DNA of 12,517 nucleotides from a virus (IMGVR_UViG_2531839668_000004:1-12517); one strand, 5' to 3'; shown: positions 7,998-12,517, numbered from the stretch's first letter. Program-made: numbers and translations. Notes: generated from the sequence alone by a model not told the origin.

Positions 7998-8190
7998 GCT
8001 GCTTTCTCCTGAAATAGAGGGCGGTGGACGGGATTTTGATGTGGCTGTGCCTTTCGCCACCCCGTGCCGCCCGTGCGCGGGGGCACGTTCTGTCAGCGGC
8101 TGTCATTGCGCAGTCTGCGCTCCAGCTGCTGTTTGTCTTTTTTCACGCCACAGCGGGGATCGAGCTGTAACGCATGGTTGAGATGGTTAA

Positions 8191-9375
8191 GGGCAGAAGG
8201 CACAGGCTCACGTCTTTAAGCAGTACATCATCGACTTCGCCAAAGAAGTGGAGGTGGAGCTGAAAGGCGATCCGATGGTGCTTCCTAACGGGGCCACGCT
8301 TTACTTCCTCGGCACCAATGCCCGCACGGCCCAGAGTTATCACGGCAACCTGTATCTGGATGAATATTTCTGGATACCGAAATTCCAGGAGCTGCGCAAA
8401 GTGGCTTCCGGTATGGCTATTCACAAGAAATGGCGACAAACCTATTTTTCCACGCCATCCAGCCTGACACACAGTGCTTATCCGTTCTGGTCCGGTGCGC
8501 TGTTCAACCGTGGGCGCAACAAAGCCGATAAGGTGGACATCGACCTGTCCCACAGCAATCTGGCTCCCGGCCTGCTGTGTGCAGACGGGCAGTACCGCCA
8601 GATAGTCACTGTGGAAGATGCGGTGCGCGGCGGCTGTAACCTGTTCGACCTCGACCAGTTGCGCATGGAGTACAGCCCGGACGAATACCAGAACCTGCTG
8701 ATGTGTGAGTTCGTGGACGATCTCGCGTCCGTATTCCCGCTCAGCGAGCTGCAGGCGTGCATGGTGGACAGCTGGGAAGTCTGGACCGACTTTCATGCAC
8801 TGGCCCTGCGCCCGTTTGGCTGGCGCGAAGTATGGATCGGTTATGACCCGGCGAAAGGTACGCAGAACGGCGACAGTGCCGGATGCGTGGTGGTGGCTCC
8901 GCCAGCCGTGCCGGGCGGTAAGTTCCGCATTCTTGAGCGTCACCAGTGGCGCGGGATGGACTTCCGCGCCCAGGCGGACGCCATCAAAAAACTGACCGAA
9001 CAGTACAACGTGACCTATATCGGCATCGACTCGACAGGTGTAGGTCACGGGGTTTATGAGAACGTGAAAGCGTTCTTTCCTGCCGTCCGGGAGTTTGTTT
9101 ACAACCCCAACGTTAAAAACGCCCTGGTACTCAAGGCCTACGACATTATCAGTCACCGTCGTCTGGAGTTTGACGCCGGACACACCGACATCGCGCAGTC
9201 ATTTATGGCAATCCGTCGCGCCACCACCGCCAGCGGCAACCGCCCGACCTATGAAGCCAGCCGCAGCGAAGAAGCCAGCCACGCCGATCTGGCCTGGGCA
9301 ACGATGCATGCACTGTTTAACGAACCGCTGCAGGGTGAATCCGCCAATACCAGCAATATTGTGGAGATTTTTTGA
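8191..9375 (+). pseudogene. P: Terminase large (ATPase) subunit P, N-terminally truncated: only about the C-terminal two-thirds is present
   Basis: The frame opens right after a TAA at 8188-8190 and runs to 9375 (about 394 codons, versus about 590 aa that I recall for P2 gpP). No N-terminal Walker A region is present; LYLDEYF is Walker-B-like. Stop overlaps the Q start (ATGA). Divergent from L, with nothing in between. Confidence 0.7.
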
Positions 9376-10418
9376 TGGGAAAGAGTAAGAAAAACCGCGC
9401 TGCGGCGACGAATCAGCTCAAGCATAAAAACCAGACTTCAGCCGAAGCATTCAGCTTCGGCGATCCCGTTCCGGTTCTGGACCGCCGTGAACTGCTGGAC
9501 TATGTGGAATGCGTACAGACAGATCGCTGGTATGAGCCGCCAGTGAGTTTTGACGGACTGGCGCGTACCTTTCGCGCCGCCGTGCACCACAGCTCACCGA
9601 TTGCAGTGAAATGCAACATTCTGACCAGCACCTACATCCCTCACCCGCTGCTCAGCCAGCAGGCTTTTTCACGTTTTGTGCAGGACTATCTGGTTTTTGG
9701 TAACGCCTACCTGGAGAAACGCACGAACCGGTTCGGTGAAGTTATCGCCCTTGAGCCTGCTCTGGCAAAATACACCCGACGCGGATTAGACCTGGATACC
9801 TACTGGTTTGTGCAATACGGTATGACAACCCAGCCGTATCAGTTCACGAAAGGCAGCATTTTTCATCTGATGGAACCGGATATTAATCAGGAGATCTACG
9901 GCCTGCCCGGCTATCTTTCTGCCATCCCATCCGCTTTGCTCAACGAGTCCGCCACGCTGTTCCGCCGGAAGTATTACATTAACGGTAGTCATGCAGGCTT
10001 CATCATGTACATGACCGATGCCGCGCAGAACCAGGAGGATGTGAACAACCTCCGCAATGCGATGAAAAGCGCCAAAGGTCCAGGCAACTTCCGCAACCTG
10101 TTTATGTACTCGCCTAACGGCAAAAAGGACGGGCTTCAGATCATCCCGTTGTCAGAAGTTGCGGCGAAGGATGAGTTTCTGAATATCAAGAACGTGAGCC
10201 GTGATGACATGATGGCTGCGCACCGCGTGCCGCCGCAAATGATGGGGATTATGCCTAATAATGTTGGAGGGTTTGGGGATGTGGAAAAAGCCGCGAAGGT
10301 TTTTGTCAGAAATGAGTTGGTTCCTTTGCAGAAAAGACTAGTTGAGCTAAACACCTGGATAAATCAAAATATTGTGTCATTTAATGACTACATCCTTGAC
10401 CAAGATAAGGGCATTTAA
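9372..10418 (+). CDS. Q: Portal protein (P2 gpQ-like)
   Basis: 348 aa, close to the size of P2 gpQ; coupled to P by an ATGA overlap. The last roughly 35 codons are encoded by AT-rich DNA. Confidence 0.85.
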   Translation: MMGKSKKNRAAATNQLKHKNQTSAEAFSFGDPVPVLDRRELLDYVECVQTDRWYEPPVSFDGLARTFRAAVHHSSPIAVKCNILTSTYIPHPLLSQQAFSRFVQDYLVFGNAYLEKRTNRFGEVIALEPALAKYTRRGLDLDTYWFVQYGMTTQPYQFTKGSIFHLMEPDINQEIYGLPGYLSAIPSALLNESATLFRRKYYINGSHAGFIMYMTDAAQNQEDVNNLRNAMKSAKGPGNFRNLFMYSPNGKKDGLQIIPLSEVAAKDEFLNIKNVSRDDMMAAHRVPPQMMGIMPNNVGGFGDVEKAAKVFVRNELVPLQKRLVELNTWINQNIVSFNDYILDQDKGI

Positions 10419-10429
10419 TGCCCTTTTTT
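10407..10429 (+). terminator. Intrinsic terminator hairpin shared by the convergent Q and membrane-protein genes
   Basis: AAGGGCAT-TTA-ATGCCCTT stem-loop followed by a T-run; the Q stop codon lies in the loop, and the converging minus-strand gene ends at 10415. Confidence 0.6.
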
Positions 10430-11206
10430 ATCCTCATAAGCAACGTCATCGTATAATTTTAAGGCACCTAAATCATGTAATTGCTGCTTGAATTCCTTAC
10501 TTAAACTAAACCCCTGAAGGAGAGAATATTTTTCAATAAATTTCTTGGCAGGCTTTCCTACCGATGAAAAACCATTTAATAGCATCGCGCCAGATTCTAT
10601 AGAAGATATTTGTGCTCTAACTAATTTCGCATACTTGGTTTTTTCTTTCTCAGTCAAATAGTTAGAGTCGTTGATATGTTTAAAAATATGGTAAATATTC
10701 CTGAAATAATGTCCCACATTCGCAAAATTGTCACCTTCCAGATAAACCATATTAACTGAAAGCTCTAACCTTTCATCCAAAGGAAGTGAATCATCCACAA
10801 TATTAAGTAGGTTAAACTTCACTTCGGTAATGTATAATGAAAGAGCCTCTCGTCCTACATACACTTTTCCATCTGAATACGTTGTTTTAATTTCTGATAA
10901 GTTATCTTTATGAAATCTTAGTAACTCAAATAACACAGACTCGAATGACTGAATAGATGACTGCCTGGATGTAGAATATAGTGTGAAACAAACAAGCATG
11001 ATAGAGATAAAGGCCAGAGCAGGATTCAGTACACCACCAATATAATCGCCAAACTGTCCCCATTTCTCTACGGAATCACTCCATGAATACATTCCAAATT
11101 TACAAACATAGCTAACAAACACTATCAGCATTAAAATAAAAGCCAAAAACAACAGTGAATAAATAATGGCATAACGCTTAATATTTCGAAGAATGGCACC
11201 ACACAT
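10415..11206 (-). CDS. Membrane-anchored protein of unknown function (two N-terminal transmembrane helices plus a roughly 190-aa soluble domain); cargo gene
   Basis: ORF track gives 10415..11272 (285 aa), but that start overlaps the ASCH gene by 55 bp; the internal ATG at 11206 (MCGAILRNIKRYAIIYSLLFLAFILMLIVFVSYV...) avoids this. Second hydrophobic helix LNPALAFISIMLVCFTLY. AT-rich codon usage unlike the phage module. Confidence 0.6.
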   Translation of the reverse strand: MCGAILRNIKRYAIIYSLLFLAFILMLIVFVSYVCKFGMYSWSDSVEKWGQFGDYIGGVLNPALAFISIMLVCFTLYSTSRQSSIQSFESVLFELLRFHKDNLSEIKTTYSDGKVYVGREALSLYITEVKFNLLNIVDDSLPLDERLELSVNMVYLEGDNFANVGHYFRNIYHIFKHINDSNYLTEKEKTKYAKLVRAQISSIESGAMLLNGFSSVGKPAKKFIEKYSLLQGFSLSKEFKQQLHDLGALKLYDDVAYEDKKGH

Positions 11207-11217
11207 CTCACAATACC

Positions 11218-11595
11218 TTATATATAATCCATATTTAAATCTATTGTATAAATACCTTTCCTCGCCACACAAGGAATAGATTTTTTTAAAGTTCTAACAT
11301 TTTTAATTTCCCACACATAATAACCTGGAGACCAAGGCTTATTAAGAGTTGTTTCTTGGTTTTGTTTTAAGTAATCCTCATATGACCAATTTCTAACTGA
11401 AACAAAATCGACAATAGCCATAGCCACCCCATGATCTATATCGCTTTGATTTTTAAGATATTTATCATTCTGAACAAGAATGACGTTTTTTAATGGTATC
11501 GTTTCAGGATACCACGACCGTATTTCGATAGATTTAGAACCATTTATAATATTTTCTACCGCTGGAGTCAAAATCGATATAGCTTGAAACTTCAT
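11218..11595 (-). CDS. ASCH-domain (PUA-like beta-barrel) protein
   Basis: 125 aa; N-terminal ISILTPAVENIINGSKSIEIRSW contains the ASCH signature G-x-K-x-x-E-x-R. GAGGA ribosome-binding site before the start; AT-rich; upstream of and co-oriented with the membrane protein gene. Confidence 0.7.
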   Translation of the reverse strand: MKFQAISILTPAVENIINGSKSIEIRSWYPETIPLKNVILVQNDKYLKNQSDIDHGVAMAIVDFVSVRNWSYEDYLKQNQETTLNKPWSPGYYVWEIKNVRTLKKSIPCVARKGIYTIDLNMDYI

Positions 11596-11660
11596 GCTCT
11601 ATCCTCTACTATGCTAAGGCTATAACATTCTAACATAAATAAATAAACGGAGGTAATACT

Positions 11661-12206
11661 ATGTTAATTTTCATAGCAGGTGTTCATGGTGTAGGCAAAG
11701 GTTACTTGTGTTCATTTGCAAAAGATGATTTCGGGGTAACTCATGTAAGCGCAAGCGAACTTATAAAAAATAATTCTAATATTAAATTTGATAACAGTAA
11801 GTTAACGGCCACACCTGATAAAAACCAATCAATATTACTTACGGCACTTAATGCATTAAAGTCAAAGGTATCCAATATTTTATTGGATGGTCATTTTACC
11901 TTAATAAATAAAAATGGAGATATTGAAGTTCTCAAGCAAGAAGTATTTGAGGAAATGGGGCTAGATGGAGTAATTTTAGTTGAGGAGTCTCCCGATACAA
12001 TTAGAGAACGAATAATGAAACGAGATGGGAGTGATATTACTTATGATTTAAATAAGCTGATGGAAGCTGAAAGAGAAAACGCAAAATATGTTACAAATAA
12101 AATCAATGTACCATTAATTATCTTAGAATCCCCAACAACAAACGATTTATCTATTGCTCTAGAAAAACTGGGCATGGTTAAGAAACATGCCCAGATAACA
12201 TTATAA
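11661..12206 (+). CDS. Small P-loop NTPase, nucleoside/nucleotide-kinase-like
   Basis: 181 aa; Walker A MLIFIAGVHGVGKGY at the extreme N-terminus and a Walker-B-like hhhhD (ILLDGHF), the layout of small adenylate/shikimate-type kinases. GGAGG ribosome-binding site 7 nt upstream. Divergent from the ASCH gene across a 65-bp AT-rich gap. Confidence 0.65.
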   Translation: MLIFIAGVHGVGKGYLCSFAKDDFGVTHVSASELIKNNSNIKFDNSKLTATPDKNQSILLTALNALKSKVSNILLDGHFTLINKNGDIEVLKQEVFEEMGLDGVILVEESPDTIRERIMKRDGSDITYDLNKLMEAERENAKYVTNKINVPLIILESPTTNDLSIALEKLGMVKKHAQITL

Positions 12207-12517
12207 ATAACGATAAGACTGTGGGGCGACGCCGCCGGGAATCAACTCATTTAAGTCGACAGGGAATTTATATCTTTTAGGGCTTTTGATGGAAATAGCA
12301 AAAGCCTTTTCTCTTTGGTGGAAATAATCTTTAAAAAAAGAATGTGTAATTCCTGCATGAGCTTTCGTTTTATCCCACAATTCTGAAGGGGATAGAGCAA
12401 GAATATCTCCTACTTTAAATTCACCTATTACTTTGCCAACCGGCATCGTTGCGTAAATAACTATCGTATCAACATTTTTATTTCTAAAAATATTTTTCCG
12501 AAACTCATATTTTTTTA
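12201..12517 (-). CDS. Partial ORF (C-terminal part; N-terminus beyond the right window edge), unknown function
   Basis: ORF track shows 12201..12446 (81 aa), but the frame appears open upstream to the window edge (..DTIVIYATMPVGKVIGEFKVGDILALSP...). Convergent with the kinase gene, overlapping it by 6 bp. AT-rich. Confidence 0.5.
   Translation of the reverse strand, partial: KKYEFRKNIFRNKNVDTIVIYATMPVGKVIGEFKVGDILALSPSELWDKTKAHAGITHSFFKDYFHQREKAFAISIKSPKRYKFPVDLNELIPGGVAPQSYRYL

Follow-up and report, generated by a model that had tools for sequence, protein, structure and literature searches.

AbiC and AbiP, the closest described relatives of the protein studied here, are membrane-anchored proteins of abortive infection: AbiC combines two N-terminal transmembrane (TM) helices with a soluble domain, and AbiP, which has a single TM helix, has a phage major tail protein as its trigger and prefers RNA to single-stranded DNA as a ligand (PMC13064643). 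PdpSau, an AbiP-like protein of a Staphylococcus aureus prophage, causes abortive infection in which membrane potential and permeability are affected (PMC10127798). We analysed IMGVR_UViG_2531839668_000004:1-12517, a stretch of viral DNA of 12,517 nucleotides (hereafter, the window), in which a gene of this family, putAbiC, directly follows a gene for an ASCH-fold protein, ASCH#1. An earlier note, made from the sequence alone, had read the two as a two-gene operon. We find that the inherited unit is a block of five or six genes and not this pair, and that the position held by putAbiC at the end of the block is filled by an unrelated gene in some lineages and left empty in others. Our favoured reading, which we regard as an even call, is that putAbiC is a membrane effector in a slot that is optional, open to exchange and coupled to ASCH#1, within a six-gene cassette of the Q–A hotspot of P2-like phages.

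Compared with the described systems, the window locus is similar in parts and different as a whole. The likeness to AbiC and AbiP consists of a putAbiC Pfam domain above cutoff, matches to PADLOC profiles, and an AbiC-type arrangement of two TM helices and a helical domain, but the similarity is at the profile level only, with very low identity. AbiC and AbiP are single, plasmid-borne genes of Gram-positive bacteria, whereas the window putAbiC is the last of six genes, behind ASCH, in enterobacterial prophages. PdpSau is prophage-encoded, membrane-anchored and AbiP-like in fold, and it protects lysogens, making it the best functional precedent for a prophage gene of the putAbiC type; by description, however, it has one TM helix, a positively charged C-terminal domain and a proposed OB-like fold, whereas in the window protein there is a second TM helix and the domain is all-alpha and near neutral. 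The three cassette genes upstream of a kinase-like gene match components A (split) and B of the candidate system PDC-M11 with E values of 1e-49 to 1e-69, although the PDC-M11 definition includes no kinase-like gene, no ASCH#1 and no terminal two-TM gene. SLATT proteins are effectors of nucleotide-signalling conflict systems, and one of them, SLATT_5, is found at the same terminal operonic position in two lineages; it has no sequence relation to putAbiC. The ASCH-type proteins EOLA1/CXorf40A, Zymomonas ASCH, TRIP4/ASC-1, YqfB and BapA have activities that include RNA binding, ribonuclease, N4-acetylcytidine (ac4C) amidohydrolase and deglucosylase, and none of them is paired with a membrane protein. 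Finally, P2 old/tin and the other Q–A systems share the hotspot and the phage family with the cassette, but its gene content is unrelated to old, tin and the named Rst and PD systems.

The two genes and the elements within them are located in the window as follows.

11218–11595, minus strand: ASCH#1 gene, 125 amino acids (aa), coordinates including the stop codon TAA at 11218–11220; an EOLA1-like ASCH beta-barrel protein
10415–11206, minus strand: putAbiC gene, 263 aa, start ATG 11206, stop TAA 10415–10417; an AbiC/P-family membrane protein by its profile matches
11216–11219, minus strand: putative Shine-Dalgarno (SD) sequence of putAbiC, AAGG, 9 nt before ATG 11206 and overlapping the ASCH#1 stop codon
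11102–11170, minus strand: predicted TM helix 1, residues ~13–35 (hydropathy, charge count, AlphaFold2 helix)
10973–11035, minus strand: predicted TM helix 2, residues ~58–78 (hydropathy, AlphaFold2)
10514–10720, minus strand: Pfam putAbiC domain core, residues 163–231 of 263 aa, from the Pfam match at 185–253 of a 285-aa translation

Judged by profile similarity, the terminal membrane protein is a member of the AbiC/P abortive-infection family. The Pfam putAbiC domain (PF16872), which is carried by all 60+ putAbiC homologs, was matched with 67.9 bits (E = 1.2e-18; gathering score 22), and the PADLOC profiles for AbiC and AbiP gave weak matches (1.1e-5 and 3.3e-4). Homology to a housekeeping transporter or enzyme family, which the earlier note had named as a point against its reading, did not emerge; the protein matched putAbiC instead, which excludes a housekeeping transporter. 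The family comprises 21,118 clusters at 50% identity (E <= 1e-3), nearly all of them full-length at 255–340 aa, and within alignments A1 and A4 the motifs G-H-Y-F-R-N and R-A-Q-x-S-S-x-E of the domain core are invariant. Relatives found on plasmids are all distant, with 21–34% identity. A sequence search of solved structures returned no relative of either putAbiC or ASCH#1, and NCBIfam gave no useful match for either protein.

Kyte-Doolittle windows placed two hydrophobic segments at residues ~13–35 and ~58–78 of the 263-aa form. The AlphaFold model (predicted local distance difference test score 86.3) has two long N-terminal helices, the second of which continues into an all-alpha cytoplasmic domain, and together these analyses bear out the two N-terminal TM helices and soluble domain that had been read from the sequence. 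The N-terminus ahead of TM helix 1, MCGAILRNIKRY, carries a charge of +3 and is hence predicted to be cytoplasmic, and the inter-helix loop of 22 residues is acidic. A positive N-terminus and an acidic loop suggest an N-in/C-in topology. The most conserved stretch of the family, E-K-W-G-Q-F-G-D-Y-I-G-G-V-L-N-P, precedes TM helix 2 and would form the predicted periplasmic loop and the entry into that helix.

Both open reading frames (ORFs) that the earlier note had assigned to the minus strand, an ASCH-fold gene followed by a membrane-protein gene, were confirmed; with the ATG 11206 start, a gap of 11 nt separates them and there is no overlap. Conserved families of homologs and the drop in GC content over the block argue that both are real and not chance ORFs. 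An alternative ORF for the membrane protein (10415–11272, 285 aa) begins at TTG 11272 and had been put forward as a start that adds a Cys-containing extension and overlaps ASCH#1. We rejected it: the Cys-rich extension of 22 aa is conserved in 0 homologs, the TTG has no SD sequence, and the NCBI Prokaryotic Genome Annotation Pipeline (PGAP) does not use it, calling the start at 11206 (WP_000333697.1). The N-termini of 28/28 homologs in alignment A1 lie at or near ATG 11206. The overlap of the putAbiC SD sequence with the ASCH#1 stop codon suggests that the two genes are translationally coupled. In all nine loci measured, 7–34 nt separate ASCH#1 from the next gene, with 10–34 nt where that gene is putAbiC (seven loci) and 7 nt where it is SLATT_5.

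For ASCH#1 the label given earlier held at the level of fold and motif and failed at the level of Pfam, where the match to ASCH (PF04266) is sub-threshold (19.6 bits compared with a gathering score of 21.2). PF04266 is present in many members of the ASCH#1 family (e.g. P0093, P0094 and P0121–P0148), and a profile search reached 84 clusters. The predicted protein has an EOLA1-like ASCH beta-barrel fold, and the cavity motif GxKxxExR reads G19-S-K21-S-I-E24-I-R26, with K21, E24 and R26 invariant among 21 sequences. We base the ASCH assignment on this fold and motif evidence. The motif is defined in PMC6803910, and its residue numbering in ASCH#1 equals that in EOLA1. Among ASCH-like proteins, BapA, which strips glucose from glucosyl-5-hydroxymethylcytosine DNA, is a recent precedent in defence (PMC13160076), and PUA-superfamily domains, including ASCH, are described as modified-base sensors in type IV restriction (PMC12191111). 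A recent paralogy of ASCH#1 with the second ASCH gene of the cassette, ASCH#2, was considered and dismissed, as BLASTP found no similarity between them (E = 14). Distant relatives of ASCH#1 (~41–42% identity) also occur outside any cassette, in Cupriavidus (L130, 5001–5922) and in Burkholderia stagnalis (L132, 5001–5381). The Cupriavidus gene is directly upstream of a GNAT acetyltransferase gene and near RES-Xre and Fic genes, a GNAT–ASCH adjacency that echoes the pairing within the cassette; the Burkholderia gene adjoins cysS and other housekeeping genes.

The gene order of the cassette is a GNAT-like gene of 156 aa, a gene of 193 aa, ASCH#2, an oppositely oriented P-loop kinase-like gene, ASCH#1 and the terminal two-TM gene. 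A complete prophage in E. coli 31B19CPO012 (locus L001) is 99.97% identical to the window and carries the cassette between the portal gene Q and the replication gene A, a region that is a defence hotspot of P2-like phages (PMC9122126; PMC9519451). From Q to a DinI-like gene, PGAP annotates six small AT-rich genes in this prophage as putAbiC, ASCH#1, an opposite-strand ATP-binding protein, ASCH#2 and two hypothetical proteins, over a cassette length of ~3.2 kb. Immediately past Q, GC content drops from ~57% to ~33%, exactly over the block, which indicates that the cassette is foreign cargo. Two of the remaining four genes fall at least partly within the window.

11661–12206, plus strand: P-loop kinase-like gene, 181 aa, adenylate/thymidylate-kinase-like (Pfam AAA_17, 8.4e-19; phrog_761 'thymidylate kinase', 3.1e-19)
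12201–12517, minus strand: ASCH#2, cut by the end of the window (PADLOC PDC-M11B, 3.4e-25 for the part in the window and 1.7e-49 for the full gene in L001; Pfam ASCH, 5.3e-9)

Upstream of ASCH#2 and beyond the window, PDC-M11A is represented by two ORFs of 156 and 193 aa, one for each half (5.9e-69 and 1.1e-58); the PDC-M11-matching genes and the kinase-like gene continue from 11661–12517 of the window into L001 16282–18226. The 156-aa protein is GNAT-like, as judged by a profile match to N-acetyltransferase structures (8.7e-5), weak Pfam GNAT matches in 9/13 members and an acetyltransferase PHROG; a profile of the 193-aa protein had no matches in the PDB. ASCH#1 and putAbiC did not match the PDC-M11 profiles at E <= 0.1 and are hence adjacent to that candidate and not members of it. 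We detected neither a nucleotide cyclase nor a SMODS, SLOG or TIR domain in any gene of the cassette. PDC-M11A is split into 156 and 193 aa in every enterobacterial cassette and is a single ORF of 347–355 aa in the distant viral contigs L126 and L127, which hold a minimal form made up of fused PDC-M11A and ASCH#2, with or without the kinase gene. The kinase-like gene keeps its position in nearly all cassettes; it is only a fragment in the Kosakonia-type loci L002, L100 and L115, and it is split in L142.

The order and orientation of the cassette are constant across E. coli, Kosakonia, Providencia, Erwinia, Serratia, Rahnella, Aeromonas, Gilliamella, Pantoea and Klebsiella, and the six-gene set is present in all close putAbiC relatives that could be placed in a complete context, viral and metagenomic contigs included. 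Of 5,426 complete E. coli genomes, 8 carry one half of the cassette, and the same 8 carry the other. All six proteins co-diverge, the kinase, ASCH#1 and putAbiC faster than the GNAT-like protein, the 193-aa protein and ASCH#2. The block adjoins Tn7-like tnsA/tnsB/TniB/TniQ genes in L088 and lies within lambdoid-like regions in L134 and L163.

These observations speak against an autonomous two-gene system, in which ASCH#1 would sense phage nucleic acid and activate the membrane protein independently of its neighbours. Such a system would fit the tight linkage with its SD/stop overlap, the capacity of the ASCH fold to bind nucleic acid or nucleotides, the exchange of putAbiC for SLATT_5 behind the same ASCH#1 family, and the faster evolution of ASCH#1, putAbiC and the kinase relative to the other three genes. 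Among 63 core-bearing loci, which de-duplicate to 34 distinct cassettes, no locus in a complete context carried ASCH#1 and putAbiC without the other four genes; those genes travel along even when the block changes mobile element, and ASCH#1 is retained without an effector gene in 10 of the 34. We consider this explanation improbable. Co-occurrence of the pair, whose absence from other genomes the earlier note had named as a point against its reading, was found in 22 distinct cassettes, but the idea of a free-standing operon is not sustained, as the pair never appears without the four further genes. The abortive-infection layout proposed with it survives in part, in that a membrane protein of an Abi family lies in an operon behind ASCH, and fails in the claim that the pair is self-contained.

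Variation at the end of the block is what points to an effector slot. The gene that follows ASCH#1 in the 34 distinct cassettes is putAbiC in 22, SLATT_5 in 2 and none in 10, and in 22/22 of the putAbiC-bearing cassettes ASCH#1 is directly upstream. The identity of SLATT_5, likewise a two-TM protein, was confirmed (E = 1.3e-34); it starts 7 nt after ASCH#1 and is found in non-P2 contexts. A conserved core is thus joined at one fixed position to alternative, unrelated terminal genes, and the swap looks like that typical of defence-system effectors. Occupation of the same slot by SLATT_5 suggests an equivalent membrane-effector role for putAbiC. In cassettes that have no terminal gene, ASCH#1 abuts a portal gene or other DNA and retains all its invariant residues.

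Several results weigh against our favoured reading of putAbiC as an effector coupled to ASCH#1. The five-gene core stands without a terminal gene in the 10 cassettes just mentioned, and one lineage among these, that of the Gilliamella loci, contains a frameshifted putAbiC remnant beside five intact genes, which together imply that the core does not need putAbiC. The SLATT_5 lineages number only two and are related to each other. All characterised AbiC/P proteins act as single genes, and a sample of 45 distant putAbiC genes, each preceded by an ORF on its own strand, showed no recurrent upstream partner, so that putAbiC may act independently of ASCH#1; at those 45 loci, neither an ASCH nor a PUA partner was recurrent. 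Fold searches with the cytoplasmic domain gave no structural match that would hint at a mechanism, a result that parallels a 2026 review in which fold searches assigned no function to AbiC/P proteins either (PMC13064643). The isoelectric point of this domain, 6.6, is near neutral, unlike that of the positively charged PdpSau domain, and does not favour nucleic-acid binding of the type shown for AbiP. On the minus strand, the hairpin at the end of the operon has no T-tail, and no promoter meeting the scan criteria was found. PDC-M11 itself has no more than candidate status, and the locus appears in a listing of PMC9122126 but not in the set cloned and tested there.

Much of this evidence would also suit a chance stack of two or three independent systems, with putAbiC as a self-sufficient, single-gene Abi at the edge of a PDC-M11-type system and ASCH#1 either part of the upstream system or unrelated and sharing only a transcript. 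Besides the single-gene action of every characterised AbiC/P member, the 21,118 putAbiC clusters are almost all stand-alone full-length proteins with no recurrent neighbour, ASCH#1 stays intact without putAbiC, putAbiC can decay alone, PDC-M11A and B are found on their own in L126/L127, and systems are commonly stacked in defence hotspots. Against stacking, the putAbiC clade with at least ~40% identity to the window protein was never seen outside the cassette, the block has moved intact into a Tn7-like element, and an unrelated two-TM protein, SLATT_5, sits at the identical operonic position 7 nt past ASCH#1, which is hard to obtain by random stacking. SLATT proteins are not known to act alone, which also counts against independent stacking. 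We regard stacking as a genuine but minority possibility and retain the swappable effector slot as the preferred reading.

The retention of ASCH#1 in cassettes that have no putAbiC bears equally on a toxin–antitoxin-like arrangement, in which putAbiC would act as a toxin at the membrane, co-translated ASCH#1 would neutralise it, and the pair would serve to maintain the prophage or to abort infection. A small upstream gene that appears translationally coupled to a membrane protein would agree with this, as would the killing of infected cells through the membrane by the AbiP-like PdpSau. An antitoxin would, however, be kept where its toxin gene is absent, distant putAbiC genes have no antitoxin-like neighbour, and AbiP is reported to be non-toxic without phage. 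ASCH is not known as an antitoxin fold, and we judge this explanation very unlikely.

The cassette is probably anti-phage. Membership of putAbiC in the AbiC/P family and the location of the locus in the P2 defence hotspot support a role in defence, and defence cargo typically moves as this block has, among P2-like, Tn7-like and lambdoid-like elements. In the scheme we favour, the cassette would defend the lysogen against other phages, with putAbiC as the effector that brings about abortive infection at the membrane. If AbiP and PdpSau are a guide, a phage product might switch putAbiC on, and membrane function would then be damaged or nucleic acid trapped at the membrane. Expression of putAbiC, and possibly its activation, would be coupled to ASCH#1. 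ASCH#1 would belong to the five-gene core, whose plausible role is to read a mark on a nucleotide or nucleic acid, or to act on it, through an acyl-transferase-like protein, two ASCH readers or hydrolases, and a kinase. A stronger version is that the six genes form one undescribed defence system, in which the mark module, with the 193-aa protein as a partner and two unrelated ASCH proteins, senses or makes a modified nucleotide or RNA in the course of infection and ASCH#1 is the adaptor that fires an interchangeable two-TM effector, putAbiC in the window and SLATT_5 in other lineages; we hold this version to be rather doubtful.

Cargo with no part in defence would offer another account, with the core serving nucleotide- or RNA-modification metabolism and the membrane protein serving superinfection exclusion of P2-like phages or lysis control. 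Housekeeping metabolism of RNA and nucleotides makes frequent use of GNAT, ASCH and kinase folds, distant relatives of ASCH#1 in Burkholderia lie beside housekeeping genes including cysS, and ASCH/DUF3850 genes are very frequent in P2 hotspots, one of them next to P2 old-tin. The locus nevertheless lies in a validated defence hotspot, its membrane protein is of an Abi family, the same slot holds SLATT_5, a two-TM domain that Pfam describes as an effector, and the block moves between P2-like, Tn7-like and lambdoid-like elements in the manner of defence cargo. We give this account very little credence.

Table S5 of Rousset et al. 2022 includes precisely these genes, under identical WP accessions, among many P2 hotspot contents (PMC9122126). 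ASCH/DUF3850 receives at least 143 mentions in the portion of that table available to us, and HHpred results in Table S3 make gene three of the canonical P2 old-tin locus DUF3850/ASCH-like (PMC9122126); P2 hotspots may in general harbour small ASCH-type genes. Neither AbiC nor ASCH is discussed in the main text of Rousset et al. 2022 (PMC9122126), Vassallo et al. 2022 (PMC9519451) or a 2026 survey of P2/P4 hotspots. In the literature searched, 'putAbiC' occurred in no paper, PDC-M11 occurred once, in passing, in an unrelated preprint, ASCH together with SLATT gave only false hits, and no tests of the cassette genes were found. The combination of a PDC-M11-like core, a kinase, a second ASCH gene and a swappable two-TM terminal gene has been catalogued before but neither described nor tested.

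The flanks of the pair contain the following features.

9375–10418, plus strand: P2-type portal gene Q (Pfam Phage_portal; L001 annotation), convergent with putAbiC, at the edge of the P2 defence hotspot
10407–10425, no strand assigned: hairpin with an 8-bp stem and a 3-nt loop, T-run on the plus strand only
11596–11660, no strand assigned: divergent intergenic region of 65 bp that separates minus-strand ASCH#1 from the plus-strand kinase-like gene
11602–11607, minus strand: possible SD sequence of ASCH#1, AGAGGA, from reading the sequence
11627–11635, minus strand: possible extended -10 element, TGTTAGAAT, likewise from reading the sequence
11584–11612, plus strand: promoter-like site from the scan, partly inside the 65-bp intergenic region

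The hairpin shared by the pair and Q was found where the earlier note had placed it. Its loop is formed by the overlapping stop codons of Q (10416–10418) and putAbiC (10415–10417), which have 2 nt in common. We regard it as a good intrinsic terminator for Q, and its use by the minus-strand operon is uncertain. Between the phage core gene and the cargo there is no non-coding DNA at all. An Rfam scan of 10300–12517 gave no matches.

The window as a whole is a P2-like prophage, with tail-fibre, baseplate, tail and lysis genes on the minus strand and terminase P and portal Q on the plus strand. Deposited phage genomes contained no exact match for the DNA, and the sole protein match, with 34% coverage, was in a P2-EC45 fragment. 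The prophage is defective, lacking ~3.2 kb relative to L001 (junction at 8194–8199; compare L001 9632–12813). Most of the small-terminase gene M, capsid N, scaffold O and ~195 5′ codons of terminase P have been lost, and terminase P is readable only from an internal GTG at 8248 (375 aa). A 346-aa ORF antisense to terminase (8143–9183, minus strand) lacks support as a genuine gene and has the look of an artefact of GC-rich antisense sequence. The defence cassette has been kept in this defective prophage, and similar cassette-bearing remnants were seen in L082 and L165. At the other end of the window, positions 1–1310 are inverted with respect to L001 889–2199 and contain tail-fibre C-terminal and tail-fibre-assembly genes; a recombinase-family gene lies beside this segment in the reference prophage (L001 258–824). 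The segment looks like an invertible host-range segment captured in the opposite orientation.

In L001, a cos-like core at 18408–18419, ~1.3 kb past the end of the window (reverse complement GGCGTGGCGGGGA), has 14/19 matches to P2 cosL and falls within non-coding DNA that separates the cassette from the DinI-like gene. The P2 cos 19-mer was not found in this matching E. coli prophage at <=3 mismatches. The cassette appears to be on the Q side of the cos-like site and not on the A side, whereas P2 has just 167 nt and the tQ terminator between cos and Q, with old/tin on the far side of cos.

The AbiC/P family exceeds 21,000 clusters at 50% identity, and its mechanism is obscure even for the lactococcal founders. 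A putAbiC lineage that is hard-wired behind ASCH and exchangeable for SLATT provides a genetic handle on AbiC/P activation, and the short E. coli cassette is straightforward to assay with standard coliphage panels. For PDC-M11, the locus extends the candidate to a five- or six-gene unit that is mobile among P2-like prophages, Tn7-like transposons and lambdoid-like regions, with one component now recognised as GNAT-like. If the six genes do form a single system, it would link acetyl-type nucleotide chemistry to AbiC-type killing and would provide the first defined upstream signal for the putAbiC family.

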